From NCBI GenBank assembly GCA_945862325.1, contig CAMAXZ010000018.1, positions 15,131 through 79,130 of the forward strand: 64,000 nt of DNA, written 5' to 3'. The notes beneath the pieces are model-generated. The model searched no databases. It was not told the origin of the DNA and saw only the letters and a list, made by a program, of their open reading frames with translations. Each line of letters opens with the position of its first letter. The stretch's first letter is position 1. The position numbers and the translations under genes are program-made. This document shows, piece after piece, positions 43,404 to 51,607 of the stretch. This DNA comes from Klebsiella pneumoniae (lineage in GTDB: Bacteria; Myxococcota_A; UBA796; SXON01).

Positions 43404-45785
43404 TTGCCAGACCCCGCCGTGACGGACGCCGAAAGCGCCCCTGTGACCTCGACCGAACCCGAGGTGGCCCCGGCCGAGGCGGCGCCTTCGGCGCTGCCCG
43501 ACGCGCCGGCCGCCACCGAGGCGCCGGCCGCGGCCGAGGCGCCCGACGCCTCGACCGCCGCCGCGGAGCTCAAGCTCAAGCGCGTGTCCGAGTGGACGAG
43601 CGACCGCTCCTTCGCCGACTTTCCCATCAGCCCCGAAGTGCTCAAGGGCGTCCGGGAGCTCGGCTACGACATGGCGACGCCGGTACAGGCCGCCACGATC
43701 GACCCCGCCCTGGCCGGGCGCGACCTCCTCGTGCGCGCCAAGACGGGCACCGGAAAGACCGCGGCGTTCTGCGTGCCGGTCGTCGAGCGTGTCGAAGCGG
43801 GCGCCCGGAGCCCGCGCGCGATCGTCCTCGCCCCGACGCGCGAGCTCGCCATCCAGGTCGCGCAAGAGTGCGCCGGCATCGCGAAGTACAAGGACCTCCG
43901 CATCGCCGCGATCTACGGCGGCGTCGGGTTCGGCCCGCAGGAGCAGGCGCTCCGCGACGGCGCGGAGATCGTCGTCGGGACCCCGGGCCGCGTGCTCGAC
44001 CACGCGCGCCGCGGCACGCTCGACCTGTCCAAGGTCCAGTTCGCCGTGCTCGACGAGGCCGACGAGATGCTCTCCATGGGCTTCCTCGAGGACGTGAGGA
44101 AGATCCTCGATCGTACCCCGAAGGATCGCCAGAGCCTGTTCGTCAGCGCGACGATCAACGAGTCGATCAAGAACCTGATCCGGAGCTACCTGCGCGACCC
44201 CGAGGAGATCTACCTCTCGGTCGACGGCGACAACGTGAGCTCCATCGCCCACGTGCTCTACGAGACCTCGCCTGACTACCACAAGGCGCGCGCCCTGCTC
44301 GATCTCATCGAGAAGGAGCGTCCGCACAGCGCGATCATCTTCTGCAACACGCGCGAGGACGTCAACACCGTCTACACCTTCCTCGACCGCCAGGGCCTCG
44401 GCGTCGAGATGATCTCCGGCGAGCTGCCGCAGAGCCGCCGCGAGAAGGTGATGGCCCGCGTCAAGGCCGGCGCGGTGCAGTACCTCGTGTCCACCGACGT
44501 CGCGGCGCGCGGCATCGACATCTCGGACCTGTCGCACGTCGTCAACTACGCGCTCCCGGAAGATCCGAGCGTGTACCTGCATCGCTGCGGGCGGACCGGG
44601 CGCATCGGCAAGACCGGCACGGCGCTCACCCTCGCCGGCGGGGCGGACTTCAGCACGCGCCTGACGCTCGAGCGGCAGCACAAGATCCTGTTCGAAGTAC
44701 GCGAGCTGCCCACCCCGCAAGAGAGCCGCCAGCTCCAGGCGGAGCGCATCGCGCGGCAGATGCGCGAAGCGGCCGGCAACATGGCGTACGAGGCCTACGT
44801 CGAGGTGGCGAAGCTCCTGCGGGACCGCCCCGACTCCGACGTGGTCCTCGCGGTCGCGGTGCGCGCGTTCCAGATGTGGGACCGCCAACGCCGTATGCAG
44901 AACGCCGAGGAGTCGGAGGAGTCGCACGAGGGCGAGCGTCCGCGCGAGGAGCGGGACGAGCGCCCGCCGCGCGGCGATCGCGGCGATCGTCCCCCGCGTC
45001 GCGAGGACCGTGACGGTCGACGCGACGACCGCGGCCCGCGCCGCGACGACCGCCCCCGCGGCGAAGACCGCCCCCGCGAAGACCGCCCCCGCGGCGACGA
45101 CCGCCCGCGCGAAGACCGCCCCCGCGGCGACGACCGCCCCCGCGAAGACCGCCCCCGCGGTGAAGGTCGCCTCCGCGACGATCGCCCGCGCGACGACCGC
45201 CCCCGCGACGACCGCCCCCGCGACGATCGCCCGCGCGACGACCGCCCCCGCGAAGACCGCCCCCGCGAAGACCGCCCACGCGAAGACCGCCCCCGCGGCG
45301 ACGACCGCCCGCGCGAGGATCGCAAGCGCGAGGACCGTCCGCGCCGCGAGCCGCGTCCCGCGGACATCGCGCCGCCGAAGCCGCGCGACGAGGACGCGCC
45401 CGACGACGTCGAGCTCGAGTCCGACGAGGAGTCCGCCGATCCGACCGACGTGGCCGCGAGCGGCGGCGAAGACGGCGAGGCGAAGAAGAAGCGGCGCCGC
45501 CGGCGTCGCCGGAAGCCGGGCGCCCGTGAGGGTGGCGAGGGCGCCACGAGCGACACCGCCGCGAGCGACGGCGGCGCCGAGAGCGGCGACACGCCCGCCG
45601 ACGCCGCGGGCGCGCCGGAGGCCTCCGAACCCGGAGCCGAGGCGGAGTCGAGCGAAGGCGACGGGACCAAGCGCCGCCGCCGGCGCCGTCGTACGCCGCG
45701 CGAAGGTGGCGAGGCCCTCGCGGCGGGCGAAGGATCGGACGCGCCCAGCGGCGACGCGCCGACCAGCGGGTCATCCGAAGACTGA
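43404..45785 (+). CDS. DEAD-box ATP-dependent RNA helicase with long Arg/Asp/Pro-repeat C-terminal tail
   Basis: Q-motif F.DF...ATPVQ, AKTGTGKT, PTRELA, DEAD (VLDEADEM), SAT, ARGID and HRCGRTGR. TTG 43404 preceded by GGAGGAG. Confidence 0.9.
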   Translation: MPDPAVTDAESAPVTSTEPEVAPAEAAPSALPDAPAATEAPAAAEAPDASTAAAELKLKRVSEWTSDRSFADFPISPEVLKGVRELGYDMATPVQAATIDPALAGRDLLVRAKTGTGKTAAFCVPVVERVEAGARSPRAIVLAPTRELAIQVAQECAGIAKYKDLRIAAIYGGVGFGPQEQALRDGAEIVVGTPGRVLDHARRGTLDLSKVQFAVLDEADEMLSMGFLEDVRKILDRTPKDRQSLFVSATINESIKNLIRSYLRDPEEIYLSVDGDNVSSIAHVLYETSPDYHKARALLDLIEKERPHSAIIFCNTREDVNTVYTFLDRQGLGVEMISGELPQSRREKVMARVKAGAVQYLVSTDVAARGIDISDLSHVVNYALPEDPSVYLHRCGRTGRIGKTGTALTLAGGADFSTRLTLERQHKILFEVRELPTPQESRQLQAERIARQMREAAGNMAYEAYVEVAKLLRDRPDSDVVLAVAVRAFQMWDRQRRMQNAEESEESHEGERPREERDERPPRGDRGDRPPRREDRDGRRDDRGPRRDDRPRGEDRPREDRPRGDDRPREDRPRGDDRPREDRPRGEGRLRDDRPRDDRPRDDRPRDDRPRDDRPREDRPREDRPREDRPRGDDRPREDRKREDRPRREPRPADIAPPKPRDEDAPDDVELESDEESADPTDVAASGGEDGEAKKKRRRRRRRKPGAREGGEGATSDTAASDGGAESGDTPADAAGAPEASEPGAEAESSEGDGTKRRRRRRRTPREGGEALAAGEGSDAPSGDAPTSGSSED
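45043..45345 (+). repeat. In-frame tandem 15-nt repeats encoding about 20 copies of DRPR(E/D/G)
   Basis: Reiterated gaccgcccccgcga(a/c)/ggcgac units, translated as ...DRPREDRPRGDDRPREDRPRGDDRPRE...DRPRDDRPRDDRPRDD... Confidence 0.85.
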
Positions 45786-45804: not shown

Positions 45805-46224
45805 TCACTCCCCGCGGGTCTGCTCCATGCGCCACACGTCGAACACGCGCACACGCGCGCCGGACGCGCTGACCTTCGCGTGGCACGCCAGACGGTAGTC
45901 CGCGTTGTTCGGCCACTTCTCTTGCAGGAGGCGCGCCTCCGCCGCCGTCGGCGCAGCGAGCGCGGCCGCCCCGTCGAGCACCTGCACCCGACACCCGCCG
46001 CAGTGCCCATCCGGGCACCCCGTCGCGATCGGGGTCTCGAGGGTCTGCGACGCCATCACGAGCGTGTACTTCGCCTCGCAGGTGGCGCCGCGTGTCGCGC
46101 CGTCGGGCAACACGAACTCCACCGCGAGGGTGTCGTCGGCCGTGCGCCCGCCCGCTTGGCGCGCGTCTCCGGCCGGAAGGCCGAGCGCGCTCTTGATCCG
46201 ACTCCGAATCCCCCAGGGTGTCAT
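45805..46224 (-). CDS. 2Fe-2S ferredoxin-like protein
   Basis: Cys pattern CPDGHCGGC...(36 aa)...LAC (Cx4Cx2C...C). The ATG overlaps the upstream stop (ATGA). Confidence 0.6.
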   Translation of the reverse strand: MTPWGIRSRIKSALGLPAGDARQAGGRTADDTLAVEFVLPDGATRGATCEAKYTLVMASQTLETPIATGCPDGHCGGCRVQVLDGAAALAAPTAAEARLLQEKWPNNADYRLACHAKVSASGARVRVFDVWRMEQTRGE

Positions 46225-47078
46225 CGAGGCCCCTCGCGTTCGGCGTCCTCGAGCGCCGTCACCAGGTAGTCGAACGCATCCGAGACCGAATCGGTACGGA
46301 AGACGAGATCGAGGTCCCGCGGGGCGATCGTACCCCATTCGACCATCGCCTCGAGGTTGACGACCGACGACCAGTAGTCGCTGCCGAAGAGCACCATCGG
46401 GAGGGCCTTCTTGATCTTCCCGGTCTGACGCAGGGTGAGGACCTCGAAGAGCTCGTCGAACGTCCCGAACCCACCGGGCAAGATGACCATCGCCTTGGCG
46501 AGGTACGCGAACCAGTACTTGCGCATGAAGAAGTAGTGGAACTGGAACGCGAGCTCCGGCGTGACGTACGCGTTGACCTGCTCCTCGAAGGGCAACGAGA
46601 TGCCGAGGCCGACGCTGCGGCCCCCCGGAACGTCGGAGGCCCCGCGGTTCGACGCCTCCATGATGCCGGGACCACCGCCGGAGCACACGAGGTAGCGGCG
46701 CCCGCCGGTGCGCTCGAGGCTCCACGCGGTCAGGCGCGCGGCGAGCTCGCGCGTATCGGCGTAGTACCGGGCGAGCCGCACGCCACGCTCGGCCTGGCGG
46801 AGCTCGGCGACCACCCGCTCGCGGACCGTCGGGTCCACCGCGTGATCGAGATCGTGACGCGCCCGCGCCAGGGCGGCGTCGGCGTCCTCCGGCGAGCGGA
46901 TGCGCGCGCTGCCGAACATGACGATGGTGTCGCGGACCTCCTGCTCGAGGAAGCGGGCGCGGGGCTCCTCGTACTCACAGAGCAGGCGGATGTGCCGCGC
47001 CGCGGGAGAGTTGAGGAAGTTTAGATTCTTGTAGGCTTTTTCGGTGTGCGGCAATGGGTCCTCGAAGGGCGCGGGCAA
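46221..47078 (-). CDS. LOG/TIGR00730-family Rossmann protein (PpnN-like nucleotide 5'-monophosphate nucleosidase)
   Basis: KAYKNLNFLNSPAAR.IR...E...TIVMFGSAR...SGGGPGIMEA.N.GA...PGGFGTFDE..E..TL.Q. The TTG 47078 start is tentative. Confidence 0.8.
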   Translation of the reverse strand: MPAPFEDPLPHTEKAYKNLNFLNSPAARHIRLLCEYEEPRARFLEQEVRDTIVMFGSARIRSPEDADAALARARHDLDHAVDPTVRERVVAELRQAERGVRLARYYADTRELAARLTAWSLERTGGRRYLVCSGGGPGIMEASNRGASDVPGGRSVGLGISLPFEEQVNAYVTPELAFQFHYFFMRKYWFAYLAKAMVILPGGFGTFDELFEVLTLRQTGKIKKALPMVLFGSDYWSSVVNLEAMVEWGTIAPRDLDLVFRTDSVSDAFDYLVTALEDAEREGPR

Positions 47079-47252
47079 GCCGACGACGATAACCCGCGCC
47101 CCTCGCCGGTGAGGGGATTTCCGCGTGACGCCGCCTACTTGGACGACCGATCGACTTTTTTCGCGCGGCCGTGACGATCCGGGGCGCCGACGGTGTCCAA
47201 GCGTGCGAGGACGCCGACGCTCGCGCGGCGCCACGTTCCCCAAGAGGAGACC

Positions 47253-47798
47253 ATGAAGCCCAGCCTGTTCGCTCTGACCGTCCTGCCGCTGCTCGGCGGC
47301 TGCATCATCTTCGATCACAAGGGTCACCCCGGCCGCGAGCCCGACACCGCCGGGGTGTGGGACACGGCCGCCGACACCGACGACACCGACGACGACGCGG
47401 CGACGTTCCGTTTGAACCCCAACCTCGCGGAGCCCGGCACCACGTTCATCGCGTCCCTCACCGTGCGCGAGGGGGCGTTCGCCCTCGGGTCGGTCGCCGC
47501 GATCGACGTCTACGGGCCGGCCACGGTCGTCGCGACCTCCACGCGCCGCGGGGAGATCCTCGTCACGCTCACCACGGACGCGGACGCGCCGGTCGGGGCC
47601 ACGGTCGACTTCCTGCTGCACACCGACACCGACGTCGTGCTCGCCGCCGACCTCCTGACGATCGTCGCCACGGGCTCGACGGACGACGGGACGGGCGATG
47701 ACGGGTCCGACGGGTCCGACGGGTCCGACGGGTCCGACGGCTCCGACGGGTCCGACGGCTCCGACGACACCGACGGCTCCGGCGGGAATGGCTGCTGA
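47253..47798 (+). CDS. Acidic lipoprotein with C-terminal (GSD)n repeat
   Basis: ATG preceded by AAGAGGAG. Lipobox LLGGC. The C-terminus is DGSDGSDGSDGSDGSDGSDGSDD. Confidence 0.7.
   Translation: MKPSLFALTVLPLLGGCIIFDHKGHPGREPDTAGVWDTAADTDDTDDDAATFRLNPNLAEPGTTFIASLTVREGAFALGSVAAIDVYGPATVVATSTRRGEILVTLTTDADAPVGATVDFLLHTDTDVVLAADLLTIVATGSTDDGTGDDGSDGSDGSDGSDGSDGSDGSDDTDGSGGNGC
47699..47766 (+). repeat. Tandem 9-nt repeat (gacgg[gc]tcc) x7 encoding (DGS)n
   Basis: Direct reading of 47699-47766. Confidence 0.85.
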
Positions 47799-48351
47799 GA
47801 GCGCGCGCTTCGTGGCCGCCCCCGCGCTCGGCGCGCGGGCGGCTGCGCCGTCGCTGGACATTCCGGCGTTGTACCGGAACTACGGCGACCTCGTCCTCGG
47901 CCGTTGCCGGACGTTGCTCCGCAACGAGGCCGACGCGCAGGACGCTGCGCAAGAGGTGTTCTTGAAGGTGCACCGCTACCGCGAGAGCTTCCGCGGCGAG
48001 TCCTCTCCCTCCACCTTCCTCTACCGCGTCACCACGACCACCTGCCTCAACCGAATCCGCTCGCGCCGCCGCCGACCGGAGGACCCGGTGGAGGAGCTGC
48101 CGGAGCCCGTCGGTCCGACCGACTCGATGCTCGACGCCCTCGCCGTGCGCGACCTGCTGGAGCGCCTGCTCGCCGGCGCCGACGAGCGCACCCAGGCCTG
48201 CGTGGTGTACCACTACGTGGACGGCATGACCCACGACGAGATCGGCGAGCTGGTCGGCATCACCGGCGGCGCCGTCCGCAAGCGCATCTCCACCTTTCGC
48301 GCCGAGCTCCGGGACTCTCCCCCCCCGTGGCTCGCGGAGATCGAGCGATGA
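47788..48351 (+). CDS. ECF (sigma-70 family group IV) sigma factor
   Basis: Region 2 YGDLVLGRCRTLLRNEADAQDAAQEVFLKV... and region 4 HTH MTHDEIGELVGITGGAVRKRI. Overlaps the upstream gene by 11 nt. Confidence 0.85.
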   Translation: MAAESARFVAAPALGARAAAPSLDIPALYRNYGDLVLGRCRTLLRNEADAQDAAQEVFLKVHRYRESFRGESSPSTFLYRVTTTTCLNRIRSRRRRPEDPVEELPEPVGPTDSMLDALAVRDLLERLLAGADERTQACVVYHYVDGMTHDEIGELVGITGGAVRKRISTFRAELRDSPPPWLAEIER

Positions 48352-49070
48352 ACCATCTCTCTACCTTGAAGCTCCATCGTCTCCGCCTCGGCGAGATCGG
48401 GGCCGACGACGACGCGCGGGCCCGCGCGCACCTCGCCTCCTGCGAGGCCTGCGCCCGCCGCTTCGACGCTCAGCTCGAGACGCGGCTCGCGTTCGCCCGC
48501 GCCCCCGTGCCTCCGGCGCTCGCGCCGATCGTGGCCCCGGAGCCGACGCCGTGGGCGAGCCTGACCGCGAGCCTGCGGAGCTTCGTCGCCCCGATCGGGC
48601 TCGTCGCCGCCGCGGCCGCCGTCATGCTCGCCGTCCTTCCGACGAGCTCGCCGGACGCGCCGCCCGCGGAGGTGCCCCTCGACACGGTCCGGACGAAGGG
48701 CTTCGTGCCGACGCTCGAAGCGTGGGTGCAGGCCGGCGACGCGCCGCGGCCGGTGTACACCGGCGAGCGGCTGCGCGCGGGCACGCGGGTGCAGTTGAAG
48801 GTCGACGCCGGTCATCGACGGTTCGTGACCCTCGCGGGTCGCGACGGGACCGGCGCGGTCGAGGTGTACGGCACGATTGCGGCGGAGGGCCCCGGGCCCA
48901 AGCCGGCCCCGTTCGCGCTCACCCTCGACGACAGCGACGGGGTCCAGACGTTCTACGCCGTGCTCACCGACGGCCGCCCGTCGCCCGACGCGCTCCGCGA
49001 CGCCCTCGCGCGGGAGCCGGTGCGCATCGAGCGCGCCGAGGTCGCCTCCGTCGCCGTGCTCAAGGAGTAG
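48348..49070 (+). CDS. Anti-sigma factor (zf-HC2-type N-terminus, one TM, extracytoplasmic domain)
   Basis: ATGA overlap with the sigma gene. H..(x)..C..C motif (HLASCEACARRF). TM helix VAPIGLVAAAAAVMLAVL. Confidence 0.75.
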   Translation: MNHLSTLKLHRLRLGEIGADDDARARAHLASCEACARRFDAQLETRLAFARAPVPPALAPIVAPEPTPWASLTASLRSFVAPIGLVAAAAAVMLAVLPTSSPDAPPAEVPLDTVRTKGFVPTLEAWVQAGDAPRPVYTGERLRAGTRVQLKVDAGHRRFVTLAGRDGTGAVEVYGTIAAEGPGPKPAPFALTLDDSDGVQTFYAVLTDGRPSPDALRDALAREPVRIERAEVASVAVLKE

Positions 49071-49071
49071 C

Positions 49072-50853
49072 GTGCTCACGCTTTTGTCGGGCTACGCCGC
49101 CGCCGCCGTCCTGCGCCACGCGCTCGTCGTGGGGGCGAACGACGGCGGAGGCGCGCTCGATCCGCTCCGCTACGCCGAGCTGGACGCCGAGCGGGTGTCC
49201 GACGTGCTCGTCGATCTCGGGGGCTTCGAGGCGCCGCACGTGACCGTGCTCTACGCCCCGAGCGTCGCCGAGCTGCGAGCGTCGCTGAAGGCGCACGCCG
49301 CGGTATCGGCCAGCTTCGACGAAGATCTCTTCATGTTGTACTACTCCGGGCACGCGGACGCCCGCGGCCTGCGGCTGGGCACCGAGATCTACCCGTTCGA
49401 AGAGCTCAAGTCCGAGCTGCGAAGCGTACCGGCGAACGTGCGCATCGGGGTGCTGGACGCGTGTCGGAGCGGGACGATCACCCGCCTCAAGGGCGCGGCG
49501 CTCTCCGAGCCGTTCCTCATGGAAGAGCGGCTGATGGCCGAGGGCGAAGCGTGGATGACCGCCACCAGCGCGGACGAGAGCGCCCAGGAGTCGGACCGCC
49601 TGCGCGGGAGCTTCTTCACGCACTATCTGCTGTCCGGGCTGCGCGGCGCCGCGGACACGGGGGACGGCGACGTCAGCCTCGACGAAGCCTACGCCTACGC
49701 GAGCGCGCGGGTGGTCGAGCAGACCGGTGGCACCGCGGCGGGCGCGCAGCACCCCATGTACAAGTACGGGTTGACGGGCCACGGCACCCTCGCGCTCACC
49801 CGCGTCACCGAAGGGCGCGCGACGGTGACCCTGCCGCCGGAGCTCGCGGGCGACATCGCCGTGATCCGCATGCCGGACCGCACCCCGGTGGCGGAGGTCG
49901 CGAAGAAGCCCGGCGTCTCCACGACCCTCGCGCTGCCCCCAGGCACCTACAAGCTGCGCCTGACGACCCCGACGCGCGAGCTGAGGGAGTCGATGATCGG
50001 GCTGAGCGACGGCAGCCGGGTCGTCGCGTCGCGCTGGGGCAGCGTCAGCGCCGAGAGCGGCACCGCGAAGGGCACGGGCGACCCCACCTTCGACGCGCTG
50101 GAGCTCGCCCGCATCGGCGGAGCGGAGAGCCTCGGGTGGGCGCAGACCGCGTTGAACGCTCAGGACCTCCGACAGAGCCCCCTGCTGGCCGGGAGCGCCT
50201 CTCTGTTGGTTCCGGGTGCCGGGCAGTTCTACAACGCGCAGTGGGTGAAGGGCGGCCTGTTGTTCGCCGGCACCTTCGCCCTCCTCGGCGGCTCGCTCCT
50301 CACCGGCGACGACGGTTTCTTTCGGGGCAGCGTCACCGGCCCGGACCCGCTGCGCCTCGGCGCGGCGATGCTCTACGGCTACGCGGTCGCCGACGCCGCG
50401 TGGATGACGCACAAGCGCGAGTCCGCGCCCCCCTCCGGGGGTTGGACCCTCGCCTCGAGCGCGGGGTGGGGCCCGCACGGCCCCGGCTCTCCGTGGGCCG
50501 CCGGCCTCAACGTCGAGTGGCTCGCGTCCCGGCACGTCACGTTCGCGCTCGACCGCGTCGGGTGGACCCGCGCCCCCGACGAGTCCAGCGCGTGGAGCCT
50601 CGGCGGGCGCGTGGGCGTGCCGATCCTCGCGGGTCCCCGCCTGCGCCCCCTCGCCTTCGCCGCGGTCGGCGCCCGGCTCCGCGACGCCCCCGGCGAGGCG
50701 CCCACGGTGGTGCCGGTCGTCGGCGCGGGGGCGCAGCTGCGTTGGTACCTGACCCCGCGGTACTTCATCGAGGCGGAGGGGCGCGCGGAGACCGAAGGCG
50801 ACGAGGTGGTCGGGCTGTACGGCGGCGGCCTGGGGGTGCACTTCGGGCGTTGA
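49072..50853 (+). CDS. Caspase (peptidase C14) domain protein with intact His/Cys dyad and C-terminal membrane/beta-rich module
   Basis: GTG preceded by AAGGAG, 1 nt after the anti-sigma stop. Motifs YYSGHAD (His) and GVLDACRSG (Cys). C-terminal LLVPGAGQFYNAQWVKGGLLFAG hydrophobic motif and a Gly/aromatic-rich end. Confidence 0.8.
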   Translation: MLTLLSGYAAAAVLRHALVVGANDGGGALDPLRYAELDAERVSDVLVDLGGFEAPHVTVLYAPSVAELRASLKAHAAVSASFDEDLFMLYYSGHADARGLRLGTEIYPFEELKSELRSVPANVRIGVLDACRSGTITRLKGAALSEPFLMEERLMAEGEAWMTATSADESAQESDRLRGSFFTHYLLSGLRGAADTGDGDVSLDEAYAYASARVVEQTGGTAAGAQHPMYKYGLTGHGTLALTRVTEGRATVTLPPELAGDIAVIRMPDRTPVAEVAKKPGVSTTLALPPGTYKLRLTTPTRELRESMIGLSDGSRVVASRWGSVSAESGTAKGTGDPTFDALELARIGGAESLGWAQTALNAQDLRQSPLLAGSASLLVPGAGQFYNAQWVKGGLLFAGTFALLGGSLLTGDDGFFRGSVTGPDPLRLGAAMLYGYAVADAAWMTHKRESAPPSGGWTLASSAGWGPHGPGSPWAAGLNVEWLASRHVTFALDRVGWTRAPDESSAWSLGGRVGVPILAGPRLRPLAFAAVGARLRDAPGEAPTVVPVVGAGAQLRWYLTPRYFIEAEGRAETEGDEVVGLYGGGLGVHFGR

Positions 50854-50902: not shown

Positions 50903-51607
50903 ATGACGTTGTTCCTTATTCTCGTGGCGTGCGCGGCGCGCAACGGCGGCCTCGACGACCCCGGCTATGTCCCGCCGCCCATGAACGACACGCCGACCAC
51001 CCCGGTTCCGACCGGCCCCGAGGCCGACGACCCGACGGCGCAGGACGAAGCGCCCGCCACGATGGGTGAGCGGAGCGCGTTCGCCGCGCTGGAGCCCGCG
51101 CAGGGCGGCACCGTCAGCGGCTCGGTGACCTTCACCGAGACCTACCTGGACGCCGGGCTTACCATGCCGGACGACCCGATCGGCTTCACCGACGCGCCGC
51201 CCTCCGAGACGCGCATCCGCATCGAGCTCGAGGGCGCCCAACCGGGCGACGTCCACGTCCGCCTGCACGAGACCGGGAGCTGCGGGGGGGACCCCGGCGC
51301 CCCGCTGGATCTTTCGGGCGGCGCGATGAACGGTGGGATGAACGACGCGGGCGGCGCCTTCGGCGACGGCGCCGCGGGCGGAGGCTCGTCCACGGGCGGG
51401 GTCGGGCTCGCCGAGGGAGACCTGGGCACGGTCGTCATCGGCCCCGACGGCACCGGACGCAAGGACCTGACGCTGCGAAACCTCACGATCGGCGAAGGAC
51501 CGCGATCCTTGCTCGGGCGAACCGTGTTCGTGCGCGCCGGGGTCGGGGAATCGGGCGGCCGCGTGCTGTCGTGCGGCGTCATCGGCGGGAGCGTCGCGGC
51601 CCGCTGA
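50903..51607 (+). CDS. Cu/Zn-superoxide-dismutase-like lipoprotein with degenerate metal ligands
   Basis: Lipobox ILVAC. SodC-like blocks VHVRLHETGSC, EGDLGTV, GRTVFVRAG and RVLSCGVI, with most ligand His residues absent. Confidence 0.6.
   Translation: MTLFLILVACAARNGGLDDPGYVPPPMNDTPTTPVPTGPEADDPTAQDEAPATMGERSAFAALEPAQGGTVSGSVTFTETYLDAGLTMPDDPIGFTDAPPSETRIRIELEGAQPGDVHVRLHETGSCGGDPGAPLDLSGGAMNGGMNDAGGAFGDGAAGGGSSTGGVGLAEGDLGTVVIGPDGTGRKDLTLRNLTIGEGPRSLLGRTVFVRAGVGESGGRVLSCGVIGGSVAAR

Follow-up and report, generated by a model that had tools for sequence, protein, structure and literature searches.

Why should an ECF sigma factor and its anti-sigma factor be encoded immediately ahead of an intact caspase homologue? 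This is the arrangement found on the plus strand at positions 47253-50853 of the window (the whole 64-kb stretch of DNA that was analysed), where four genes follow one another, encoding an acidic lipoprotein, the ECF sigma factor, its single-pass anti-sigma factor of the zinc-finger type and the C14 caspase homologue. An earlier sequence-only reading left two roles for the protease, either as an output of the sigma factor or as part of a proteolytic cascade acting on the anti-sigma factor. The features relevant to this question are as follows.

46221-47057, minus strand: LOG-family (Lysine_decarbox/SLOG) gene, context only, start uncertain (Pfam 7e-26)
47170-47197, plus strand: probable ECF-type promoter, with -35-like CGTGACGA (47170-47177), 14-nt spacer and -10-like GGTGTC (47192-47197)
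47253-47798, plus strand: open reading frame of the acidic lipoprotein, 181 aa, with lipobox LLGG-C then IIFD, beta-rich middle and C-terminal (GSD)n tail
47700-47786, plus strand: 9-nt tandem repeat GACGGGTCC, 9.7 copies, encoding the (GSD)n tail (Tandem Repeats Finder)
47788-48351, plus strand: ECF (group IV) sigma factor, 187 aa, sigma2 and sigma4 regions only (Pfam and TIGR02937)
48348-49070, plus strand: anti-sigma factor, 240 aa, with zinc-type domain, membrane helix, linker and beta-sandwich
48429-48452, plus strand: H28-x3-C32-x2-C35 of the anti-sigma three-helix zinc-type domain (residues 6-51)
48549-48632, plus strand: anti-sigma membrane helix (residues 68-95), followed by disordered linker (residues 96-120) and beta-sandwich (residues 122-239)
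48690-48701, plus strand: R115-T-K117-G118, basic-Gly candidate site-1 cleavage site at the boundary of anti-sigma linker and beta-domain
49062-49067, plus strand: AAGGAG Shine-Dalgarno of the caspase gene, within the end of the anti-sigma gene (read from the sequence)
49072-50853, plus strand: exported C14 caspase/metacaspase homologue, 593 aa (Peptidase_C14 1e-15, 58.5 bits against a cut-off of 21.4), with short hydrophobic leader (residues 1 to ~13)
49351-49353 and 49462-49464, plus strand: His94 and Cys131 of the caspase domain (residues 14-235)
49483-49494, plus strand: R138-L-K140-G141 in the loop after the catalytic Cys (K140 and G141 in 73/73 sequences, R138 in 65/73)
50440-50844, plus strand: eight-stranded beta-barrel of the caspase protein (residues 457-591), preceded by beta-sandwich (241-318), helix (342-361) and Gly-rich hydrophobic helices with PGxGQxYN (370-447)
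50903-51607, plus strand: Cu/Zn-superoxide-dismutase-like lipoprotein gene, context only (Sod_Cu 5.5e-10), 49 nt past the caspase stop

From 5' to 3', the junctions of the four genes are an 11-nt overlap (conditional on ATG 47788 as the sigma start), an ATGA overlap at 48348-48351, and a 1-nt gap between the anti-sigma stop (TAG 49068-49070) and the caspase GTG at 49072. All three, together with AAGGAG, are as first described. The lipoprotein/sigma junction appears to be the least certain of the operon, given that a gap of 40-100 nt is usual in orthologous loci. The possibility of another caspase start had been raised, and none lies in frame between TTG 48877 and GTG 49072. The 4-nt overlap of sigma stop and anti-sigma start is present in 55/64 loci, and in 60 of the 70 loci compared the caspase start falls -4 to +6 nt from the anti-sigma stop. 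Because these spacings recur across loci, the tight coupling of the genes is not due to chance. Translation of the caspase gene is coupled to termination at the anti-sigma stop.

Conservation of this context, on which the functional link had been staked, extends well beyond the window. Sigma and anti-sigma genes lie directly upstream of the caspase gene, mostly with 4-nt overlaps, in 62 of the 66 loci from species-level genomes that have enough DNA upstream of the caspase, and the trio spans Myxococcota-like MAGs and Acidobacteriota-type genomes. The anti-sigma family comprises 2717 clusters at 50% identity (E<=1e-10). Five of its distant members were sampled: sigma, anti-sigma and Peptidase_C14 genes are consecutive in three, a cut 539-aa ORF follows the sigma and anti-sigma genes in the fourth, and the contig of the fifth is too short to show the next gene. 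Thus, every sampled case with enough sequence, including four distant relatives, has beside the anti-sigma gene either a C14 gene or, where that gene would lie, a cut ORF. The LOG-family gene is divergent from the operon, shares a 195-bp promoter region with it, and holds the same position in ~30 loci (59-79% identity). The position of the Sod_Cu gene after the caspase is restricted to the closest clade (L001-L008), and no conserved ECF promoter copy precedes this gene in the window.

The probable promoter lies 55 nt upstream of the lipoprotein ATG, and its consensus, GGTA(G/A)CGC-N14-GGTGTC, recurs at the same place in orthologous loci. By exact bipartite count it is present in 26/37 upstream regions, versus at most 8 in shuffles, and of the 64 matrix matches across 913 kb of locus sequence, 63 lie on the operon strand. 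The motif is found upstream of the operon in ~49 loci, and it moves with the lipoprotein gene where that gene lies downstream of the caspase. In the window copy the -10 element and the spacing are preserved, but the -35 element has G where A is otherwise invariant, and the score is <8 bits; this -35 deviation counts against the model discussed below. No separate promoter for the caspase gene was seen, the only conserved ECF-type promoter being that upstream of the operon. The four genes therefore make up a single conserved unit with coupled translation, preceded by a conserved ECF-type promoter, and the suspected functional link between the sigma/anti-sigma pair and the C14 protease is supported by the conserved trio, the coupled starts and the shared promoter. 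This architecture also shows the protease to be a predicted output of the sigma factor.

The sigma factor matches Sigma70_r2 (4e-18), Sigma70_r4_2 (2e-8), Sigma70_ECF and TIGR02937 (86.7 bits against a cut-off of 42.9). Its orthologues in the loci are 55-82% identical, and its nearest solved structures are SigE and SigH of Mtb, SigW and RpoE. We found no ECF group with a different, well-defined partner logic into which it fits. The nearest lead is ECF25 (classification 2.0), set beside it by group description: the ECF25 anti-sigmas are described as ZAS and/or DUF4384, and the window anti-sigma has a zinc-type domain and a DUF4384-like sandwich. ECF25 occurs in Deltaproteobacteria, Fibrobacteres, Acidobacteria and other taxa, and its sole studied member is SigG/SapG of Nostoc punctiforme. 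However, the conserved context in that description is without a caspase, and the predicted promoter is GGAAC-Xn-GTC rather than GGTA(G/A)C...GTGTC.

Among 62 homologues of the anti-sigma factor, H28, C32 and C35 are invariant and 54 match zf-HC2. Its AlphaFold2 model has a pLDDT of 89.7, and its profile gives weak matches to ChrR, DdvA and RsiW, with the DdvA match at the N-terminus. The protein is an N-in, single-pass anti-sigma factor with a cytoplasmic zinc-type sigma-binding domain and a periplasmic linker and sandwich. Foldseek returns only generic Ig/CARDB-like matches for this protein. Distant members of the family score 29.5 and 28.3 bits against DUF4384, over its gathering score of 27 bits, and the periplasmic sandwich is probably a diverged DUF4384-like domain. 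At one locus, L073, the DUF4384 domain occurs as a free lipoprotein adjoining the caspase, without the sigma-binding part. This arrangement counts against a model in which the anti-sigma is cleaved, and the conserved core may be an interaction between domain and protease.

The caspase ORF is uninterrupted and can be aligned over its full length with >100 homologues. Both catalytic motifs, YYSGHAD (His94) and LDACRSG (Cys131), are kept, as had been noticed from the window, and are invariant among homologues; D38, H94, D129, C131, K140 and G141 are identical in 73/73 sequences. The HMMER alignment places the YAExDA segment against GCxND of metacaspase-4, and D38 and D129 occupy what we take to be the S1-pocket positions giving Arg/Lys specificity in metacaspase/paracaspase structures. 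The AlphaFold2 model (pLDDT 90.5) resembles caspase-7, -3 and -6 and metacaspases in Foldseek searches, which also return the OprF barrel (TM 0.73), OmpA, NspA, Ail and OmpX; DUF5683 is matched in 29/32 homologues. The earlier remark that the protein has no obvious signal peptide calls for some qualification. The window protein has a short hydrophobic leader (12-15 aa ending AAA), and orthologues carry leaders of 14-44 aa, many with the charged n-region of a classical signal peptide (exceptions are L050, with an 82-aa mis-called start, and L053, whose N-terminus is unreadable). The window barrel ends in HFGR instead of an aromatic residue, which counts against the model discussed below. The modeled protein is probably anchored in the outer membrane, facing the periplasm. 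Because the caspase has a leader and an outer-membrane-type barrel, and the anti-sigma is N-in with a ZAS domain, both partners are predicted to reach the periplasm.

The remaining gene product is a lipoprotein with lipobox MKPSLFALTVLPLLGGC, whose ATG follows GAGGAG by 3 nt. Its mature form is acidic (33 D+E versus 6 K+R, pI ~4.05) and has no Pfam match. A lipoprotein with the motif G-C-(I/V)-(I/Y)-(Y/F)-(D/E) occurs in 44/80 loci, either upstream of the sigma gene or downstream of the caspase behind its own promoter copy.

Evidence bearing on the choice between output and cascade comes from a motif found in both periplasmic partners. In 70 anti-sigmas, an otherwise variable linker contains R (53/70), any residue, K (58) or R (11), and then G (69/70), and the motif is likewise present in Acidobacteriota-type loci and distant family members. 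In the window protein this stretch lies ~20 residues past the membrane helix, with residues 110-115 modeled at pLDDT <50. The same R-x-K-G motif is seen across phyla in the protease loop that follows the catalytic Cys (residues 140-152, also pLDDT <50), where distant loci read ITRLKGG, MTRSKGG and ITHLKGA. By position, R138-L-K140-G141 is a candidate equivalent of the intersubunit linker, and might serve as an autoprocessing or pseudo-substrate site. Against a cleavage role, no covariation between the anti-sigma and protease-loop motifs was seen. Because K117-G118 sit only 4 residues ahead of the first strand, the anti-sigma motif may not be cut at all but serve to cap the beta-domain structurally.

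We propose, with a probability of roughly 0.45, that the caspase is the site-1 protease that cuts the anti-sigma factor, whereby the sigma factor is freed and the operon induced. The protease would hang from the outer membrane into the periplasm and, upon an envelope signal, would cut the anti-sigma linker after the invariant basic residue of R-x-K/R-G. The shortened anti-sigma would then become a substrate of the intramembrane protease RseP and of cytoplasmic proteases. The freed sigma factor would read GGTA(G/A)CGC-N14-GGTGTC and induce its own operon, yielding more lipoprotein and protease, and the R-x-K-G in the protease loop would be an autoprocessing or autoinhibitory site. As judged from sequence, the shared motif favors such a cascade role, and the invariant dyad and putative S1-pocket residues argue for real proteolysis. 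Against this proposal, known site-1 proteases are usually encoded outside the sigma operon, and where a periplasmic protease is encoded within such an operon, as MucD is, it acts as an output or a negative regulator. A search for RNA runs that contain the locus found none.

Somewhat doubtful, but next in standing, is the view that the protease is an output only. The anti-sigma would sense through its DUF4384 domain and be cut by general proteases, while the caspase, as an envelope remodeling or quality-control protease comparable to MucD of algU-mucABCD, and the lipoprotein, as its partner, would make up the regulon. Main effector genes commonly sit in ECF operons, and conserved copies of the promoter precede nothing besides the operon and either the relocated lipoprotein gene or that of another secreted protein; the 64-kb window has no further site. 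However, this view leaves unexplained both the R-x-K-G motif common to anti-sigma linker and protease loop across phyla and the constant C14 flank (or cut ORF) of the anti-sigma family. Thus, of the two roles originally suggested, each has evidence in its favor, the cascade from the shared motif and the output from the promoter architecture.

It is unlikely that the protease is instead a partner or negative regulator. In that role it would either bind DUF4384, co-sensing or shielding in the manner of RseB (with RseA) or of an outer-membrane transducer (with FecR), or degrade the inducing signal, and its proteolytic targets would be other envelope proteins such as the acidic lipoprotein. DUF4384 occurs fused to caspase domains in other proteins, the free DUF4384 lipoprotein of L073 is still paired with a caspase, and an outer-membrane protein facing an inner-membrane anti-sigma resembles cell-surface signaling. 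Yet the invariant dyad and pocket residues point to proteolysis, neither homology nor a direct sign of contact between the domains was found, and the lipoprotein has no conserved basic-Gly site. Caspase-fold proteases work in several bacterial defense systems and the DdvS/DdvA pair controls a defense island, but a suicide caspase for programmed cell death or anti-phage defense, akin to gasdermin or CHAT-based systems, is very improbable here, since PADLOC matches 0/5 gene products, the locus shows stable chromosomal synteny with the LOG gene and metabolic genes rather than a defense island, CRISPR and CBASS genes are absent from the targets of the promoter, and the protease, which is exported and anchored in a membrane and hence unlikely to be a cytoplasmic suicide effector, is not accompanied by any gasdermin, NACHT, SAVED or toxin partner.

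Several known systems resemble the proposed cascade. RseA-DegS-RseP, RsiW-PrsW-RasP and FecR/FoxR-Prc-RseP share the single-pass anti-sigma, juxtamembrane removal of its periplasmic domain and an autoregulated sigma operon, but these canonical site-1 enzymes are serine or metallo proteases encoded elsewhere, whereas here we propose an operon-encoded, outer-membrane-anchored clan CD cysteine protease. In Craspase (Cas7-11/Csx29 with Csx30 and RpoE) and CalpL/CalpT/CalpS, a dedicated protease likewise cuts an anti-sigma-like protein to free an ECF-type sigma; those systems are cytoplasmic, CRISPR-associated and activated by nucleotide or RNA, and the window operon has none of these traits. A precedent that supports the cleavage model is DdvS/DdvA of M. 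xanthus. There the sigma factor, again of the ECF type, is restrained by a single-pass zinc-type anti-sigma, and the caspase-fold (CHAT) domain that this anti-sigma carries in the periplasm is proposed to be its own site-1 protease, cutting in the juxtamembrane linker before RseP as we propose here (PMC11506125). DdvA differs in that its protease is a TPR-CHAT domain fused to the anti-sigma, the active site is incomplete, and the genes under control are those of CBASS and CRISPR (PMC11506125). In the window the protease is encoded apart from the anti-sigma, as a C14 protein ending in an outer-membrane barrel; the anti-sigma bears a small DUF4384 sandwich, and defense genes are not involved.

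Sigma-metacaspase operons were catalogued in 2012 in Myxococcus xanthus DK1622 (Asplund-Samuelsson et al., PMC3501461), with MXAN_4949-4950-metacaspase-lipoprotein, MXAN_6681-6682-6683-lipoprotein and two more, and were also listed for Haliangium, Anaeromyxobacter, Sorangium, Ralstonia and Fibrobacter (PMC3501461). Their order is that of the window, namely ECF sigma, one-helix hypothetical protein, metacaspase of ~515-577 aa and often a lipoprotein (PMC3501461); the likeness is one of gene order, and the MXAN lipoproteins lie downstream rather than upstream. The catalogue lists operons only, without anti-sigma assignment, localization, motif, promoter or mechanism (PMC3501461), and we found no study in the literature of how the pairing works. 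The sequence-only reading knew of no characterized ECF group with a caspase partner; the operon had already been catalogued (PMC3501461) and the fused caspase-like DdvA was known (PMC11506125). The sigma-caspase pairing is thus widespread, listed since 2012 and not characterized, and the best explanation of the four genes described here is that lipoprotein, ECF sigma, anti-sigma and caspase constitute a self-contained envelope signaling module.

The four linked plus-strand genes that the sequence-only reading described at 47253-50853 are present exactly as claimed, both in ORF calls and in the sequence of the window, whose G+C content is ~72%. The module is composed of the following genes.

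47253 (start), plus strand: acidic lipoprotein, 181 aa, lipobox LLGG-C
47788-48351, plus strand: ECF sigma factor, 187 aa, matches to Sigma70_r2, r4_2, and TIGR02937
48348-49070, plus strand: anti-sigma factor, 240 aa, beginning at an ATGA overlap with the sigma gene
49072 (GTG start), plus strand: C14 caspase homolog, 593 aa, Peptidase_C14 match at 1e-15, motifs YYSGHAD and LDACRSG, AAGGAG at 49062-49067

The ATGA overlap between the sigma and anti-sigma genes was also confirmed in the window sequence. The 11-nt overlap proposed for the lipoprotein and sigma genes stands as read from the ATG, but the sigma start codon is the sole soft point of the layout, and at most orthologous loci a short gap separates these two genes. 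Sequence scans revealed no meaningful sigma-70 promoter or terminator inside the operon, and no paralogs of the module genes were found in the window. The search for transcripts returned no RNA run that includes the locus, which is contained only in lake and freshwater DNA metagenomes.

The mature lipoprotein is strongly acidic (33 Asp plus Glu versus 6 Lys plus Arg; pI 4.05). Its (GSD)n tail is encoded by 9.7 copies of a 9-nt tandem repeat, GACGGGTCC, at window positions 47700-47786, and arrays of this type can differ in length among strains. Another repeat, a 15/33-nt tandem array present in 10-19 copies at 45021-45349, gives a DEAD-box helicase-like ORF of 793 aa (43404-45785, plus strand) a long C-terminal tail of Arg, Asp, Pro, and Glu repeats (DRPRE-like). 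The sigma factor consists of the sigma2 and sigma4 regions only (Sigma70_r2 at residues 28-96, r4_2 at residues 123-168) and scores 86.7 bits against TIGR02937, for which the cut-off is 42.9.

This arrangement extends well beyond the window. More than 2800 relatives of the caspase are present in the protein collection, and the best 120 of these are nearly all full-length, with 42-67% identity; the named sources among these 120 are mostly Myxococcota or 'Deltaproteobacteria' MAGs. A scan using one genome per species yielded 80 loci. Among those with at least 1.5 kb of upstream DNA, tblastn located the sigma and anti-sigma genes directly upstream of the caspase gene on the same strand in 62 of 66, with identities that are mostly 51-82% for the sigma factor and 27-60% for the anti-sigma. 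Of the four exceptions, three are of the Acidobacteriota type, with an anti-sigma too divergent for tblastn, and the two of these that were inspected (L078 and L079) carry the same three genes. The prediction that the genomic context is conserved in other genomes is therefore borne out. The junctions are similarly constant: a 4-nt overlap of the sigma stop with the anti-sigma start recurs at 55 of 64 loci, and the caspase start lies within -4 to +6 nt of the anti-sigma stop in 60 of 70. A lipoprotein carrying the motif G-C-(I/V)-(I/Y)-(Y/F)-(D/E) is present at 44 loci, located either upstream of the sigma gene or downstream of the caspase gene.

When a profile of the anti-sigma was searched against a library clustered at 50% identity, it matched 8636 representative proteins at a threshold of E<=1e-3, of which 2717 remain at E<=1e-10. 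Five distant members were inspected, and three have genes for a sigma factor, an anti-sigma, and a Peptidase_C14 protein in consecutive order; a fourth has sigma and anti-sigma genes followed by a cut 539-aa ORF, and the fifth resides on a contig that is too short to judge. A divergently transcribed LOG-family gene often adjoins the module, and this neighborhood points to a stable chromosomal resident rather than the cargo of a mobile island. In the window, this gene (46221-47057, minus strand; cytokinin riboside 5'-monophosphate phosphoribohydrolase-like) shares a 195-bp intergenic region with the operon, and its position is kept in ~30 loci.

Several variations on this organization were also observed. 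In three distant modules, a ~340-aa gene without a Pfam match overlaps the caspase gene or begins a few bases downstream (L085:3208-4227, L086:6462-7487, and L082:5401-6441), and at another homologous locus two tandem caspase paralogs follow the anti-sigma (L052:5520-8902). A gene for a site-2 protease of the RseP type, with Peptidase_M50 and PDZ domains, is located two genes from a distant sigma/anti-sigma module (L083:1-1322, minus strand), which is probably a coincidence that reflects the usual cdsA-rseP neighborhood. Many MAG records that carry the module (loci L006, L009, L010, L026, L027, L053, and others) bear the title Klebsiella pneumoniae, Enterobacteriaceae, or Enterobacterales despite a high-G+C, Myxococcota-like module, and the organism metadata in these public records look wrong.

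The anti-sigma is a ZAS-TM-DUF4384 protein, an assignment based on its zinc-binding anti-sigma (ZAS) domain, its membrane helix, and the presence of DUF4384 in distant members. The residues H28, C32, and C35 (H-x3-C-x2-C) are invariant in 62 anti-sigma sequences. An AlphaFold2 model (pLDDT 89.7) has three helices at residues 6-51, a membrane helix at 68-95, a disordered linker at 96-120, and a beta-sandwich at 122-239. The zf-HC2 family matches 54 of 62 members, with the window protein falling below threshold (19.1 bits versus a cut-off of 22.2), and the anti-sigma profile gives weak matches to ChrR, the N-terminus of DdvA, and RsiW. The DUF4384 gathering score is passed by distant family members, and the match is weak in close ones. 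From gene order and domain type, we infer that the protein binds and inhibits the adjacent sigma factor.

Foldseek identified no specific fold for the C-terminal domain of the anti-sigma, returning generic Ig/CARDB/nanobody-like matches only, all with E>3e-3. Homology among this domain, the caspase beta-sandwich, and the lipoprotein was considered and is unsupported, with profile-profile probabilities of 0.2-2.6%. Likewise, an anti-sigma/caspase fusion was considered for the long match P0301, which proved to be a multi-DUF4384 protein instead. At another homologous locus (L073:6486-8855), a DUF4384-like domain occurs as a stand-alone lipoprotein (MLILTVGC...) that lacks the sigma-binding part and an adjacent sigma gene; the promoter motif that precedes the modules (GGTA(G/A)CGC-N14-GGTGTC) also precedes this gene, and a caspase gene is directly downstream.

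The caspase homolog scores 58.5 bits against Peptidase_C14 (cut-off 21.4), and H94 and C131 are present in all 73 caspase sequences. Its AlphaFold2 model (pLDDT 90.5) begins with a caspase domain (residues 14-235), for which Foldseek matches in the PDB include caspase-7, -3, and -6 and plant metacaspases-4 and -9. This is followed by a beta-sandwich (241-318), a flexible stretch, a helix (342-361), and three Gly-rich hydrophobic helices bearing a PGxGQxYN motif (370-447), a DUF5683-type region that was matched in 29 of 32 homologs. The C-terminal part is formed by eight beta-strands (457-591, pLDDT 95-98) whose structural matches include the N-terminal barrel of OprF (TM 0.73), the OmpA transmembrane domain (0.62), NspA, Ail, OmpX, and designed membrane barrels. 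The L079 protein matches OMP_b-brl at 3.8e-4, two homologs match the OprF domain, and hydrophobic and charged residues alternate along the strands when read by eye.

This architecture suggests that the caspase is probably exported and that a barrel anchors it in the outer membrane, leaving its protease part to face the periplasm. The observation that the protein has no obvious signal peptide agrees with the very short leaders of the window clade but does not extend to the orthologs that were read individually, in which hydrophobic leaders of 14-44 aa end in an AxA-like site, many with a classical charged n-region. No convincing stop-transfer helix was identified in the caspase, as no 19-residue window fell below +2.6 kcal/mol in a rough hydrophobicity sum. 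The protein terminates in ...GLGVHFGR, and most orthologs in HFG(R/K/G) with Phe at -3, which differs from the C-terminal aromatic residue of a beta-signal; L078 alone has an aromatic C-terminus (...SLTLF). Because of this HFGR ending, outer-membrane insertion is probable but short of certain. As an alternative placement, the Gly-rich helices may form an inner-membrane hairpin. Several homologous loci (L059, L060, L064, L066, and L069) have MORN-like repeats (GxYxDGxxxGxW) in place of the barrel, and thus the membrane anchor seems to be exchangeable.

A short motif is shared by the anti-sigma and the caspase. Across 70 aligned anti-sigmas, the linker varies except in the columns just ahead of the sandwich, which read R (53 of 70), x, K (58) or R (11), and G (69 of 70), corresponding to R115-T-K117-G118 in the window protein. 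Acidobacteriota-type loci carry ERIKG and VRIKG at this location, and distant relatives carry HRTKG, DRIKG, ERIKG, TRVKG, TRLRG, and VRSKG. The caspase has I-T-R138-L-K140-G141 in the loop that follows the catalytic Cys, with K-G in 73 of 73 sequences and R in 65 of 73. Residues 140-152 form a low-confidence loop in the model. In caspases, this is the location of the intersubunit cleavage site, and R138-L-K140-G141 is a candidate autoprocessing site. Two acidic residues, D38 and D129, are invariant in the caspase sequences; D129 lies two residues ahead of the Cys, and D38 aligns to the GCxND segment of metacaspase-4. Both presumably correspond to the acidic S1-pocket positions that confer Arg/Lys specificity in the published metacaspase and paracaspase structures (TbMCA2, MALT1). 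A conserved basic-Gly site was also sought in the lipoprotein and was seen in only a few close relatives.

The regions upstream of the lipoprotein gene share the motif GGTA(G/A)CGC-N14-GGTGTC, which is exact in 26 of 37 compared with at most 8 for shuffled sequences. The putative -35 element GGTA(A/G)C and putative -10 element GTGTC are separated by 17 nt, as in the geometry of an ECF promoter. Scanning 913 kb of loci with a matrix produced 64 matches of at least 16 bits, 63 of them on the operon strand; ~49 are upstream of the first gene of a module and 10 are just downstream of the caspase gene. Seven of these downstream copies precede a relocated lipoprotein gene (L028, L048, L054, L055, L056, L070, and L071), and the other three precede a gene for another secreted protein. 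This protein (L030:8790-9509, L035:8724-9386, and L053:8755-9384) is acidic and beta-rich in its C-terminal half, and it may be a further member of the regulon.

The window copy of the motif (47170-47197) matches the -10 element and the spacing exactly but departs from the -35 element at one invariant base and scores poorly. No further site in the 64-kb window exceeds 12.7 bits by matrix, versus 22-38 bits for the training sites, and the recognizable regulon is therefore the module itself. The sigma factor may autoregulate its own operon. A Cu/Zn-superoxide-dismutase-like lipoprotein gene (50903-51607, plus strand) is located 49 nt past the caspase stop, a position that is kept only in the closest clade (L001-L008).

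The module is demonstrably a conserved, coupled four-gene unit. Its anti-sigma is single-pass and ZAS-type, its protease has an export leader and retains the catalytic residues, and the functional tie between sigma factor and caspase proposed by the sequence-only reading holds. We rate the module as a form of ECF signaling by regulated proteolysis with a caspase-fold partner. Specifically, we propose that the caspase acts as a site-1 protease for the anti-sigma. Cleavage after K117 of the anti-sigma would leave a ~20-residue stub for the intramembrane protease RseP, and release of the sigma factor would induce the operon and create positive feedback. The identical motif in the caspase loop might serve in autoprocessing or autoinhibition. 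As a whole, with the caspase cleaving the anti-sigma and the sigma factor inducing the operon, this proposal is given a probability of roughly 45%.

Perhaps the caspase is instead only an output, made as a product of the sigma regulon as is MucD, which we regard as somewhat unlikely. It is more doubtful still that the caspase serves as a binding partner or negative regulator. A role in cell death or phage defense is highly improbable given the export signal on the caspase, the stable synteny of the module, and the absence of PADLOC matches.

Returning to the proposed cleavage of the anti-sigma, an extended version can be considered in which a metacaspase anchored in the outer membrane is dedicated to site-1 cleavage of an inner-membrane anti-sigma. 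Because enzyme and substrate would reside in opposite membranes, the pair could sense envelope geometry or a failure of barrel assembly, and cleavage could report either condition. It is tempting to speculate that, upon such a failure, unassembled protease would remain free in the periplasm. We consider this extended version to be tentative, with the odds against it.

The association between sigma factor and metacaspase genes is already known, having been cataloged in 2012 by Asplund-Samuelsson et al. (PMC3501461), who reported that four of the five metacaspases of Myxococcus xanthus DK1622 are encoded alongside ECF sigma factors in operons. The order given there is sigma factor, one-helix protein, metacaspase, and lipoprotein, with further cases in Haliangium, Anaeromyxobacter, Sorangium, Ralstonia, and Fibrobacter (PMC3501461). 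The window likewise has a sigma factor, a one-helix protein, a metacaspase, and an adjacent lipoprotein, a gene order that resembles those of MXAN_4949-4952 and MXAN_6681-6684. We found no functional follow-up of these operons in the searchable literature, and queries with the M. xanthus locus tags returned one unrelated antiSMASH cluster border only.

The closest mechanistic precedent for cleavage of the anti-sigma by the caspase is DdvA of M. xanthus, in which a fused periplasmic TPR-CHAT region has been proposed, without proof, to self-cleave ahead of RseP (PMC11506125). Unlike DdvA, the 240-aa anti-sigma of the module lacks TPR and CHAT domains and has a beta-sandwich of 120 aa, and the protease is a separate C14 protein.

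Among ECF groups, ECF25 is a plausible home for the window sigma factor. Its members come from Deltaproteobacteria, Fibrobacteres, and Acidobacteria and have ZAS and/or DUF4384 anti-sigmas (ECF classification 2.0); the module has such an anti-sigma. The promoter predicted for ECF25, GGAAC-Xn-GTC, is of a similar class to GGTA(G/A)C...GTGTC of the module and is not identical to it. NCBIfam assigns the sigma factor to a superfamily model only. The terms caspase, Peptidase_C14, and PF00656 are never mentioned in the ECF reclassification paper or its nine supplementary files. The novelty lies in the outer-membrane-barrel architecture of the caspase, the assignment of its partner as a ZAS-TM-DUF4384 protein, the R-x-K-G motif that both proteins carry, the promoter with its minimal regulon, and the size of the family.

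Bacterial caspase homologs are abundant, and to our knowledge a cellular role has been established for few of them. ECF sigma factors rank as one of the main signaling systems of bacteria, and many of their groups lack a known input mechanism. The module ties these two together in a fixed and widespread arrangement, with an anti-sigma family of ~2700 clusters at 50% identity (E<=1e-10). It also offers testable elements in the candidate cleavage site, the catalytic cysteine, the promoter motif, and the predicted outer-membrane location, and if the listed operons are orthologous, the model could be tested in the genetically tractable M. xanthus. If the caspase is an output only, the module would still constitute a small regulon for a periplasmic caspase and an acidic lipoprotein. 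If its site-1 role is true, the module would represent a cysteine-protease, outer-membrane-anchored branch of anti-sigma regulated proteolysis and would lend support to the unproven DdvA model. Finally, if the pair indeed functions as an outer-membrane-anchored sensor, it would establish a new class of trans-envelope stress sensor and would provide the first defined physiological signaling role for this large group of caspase homologs, which comprises thousands of protein clusters.
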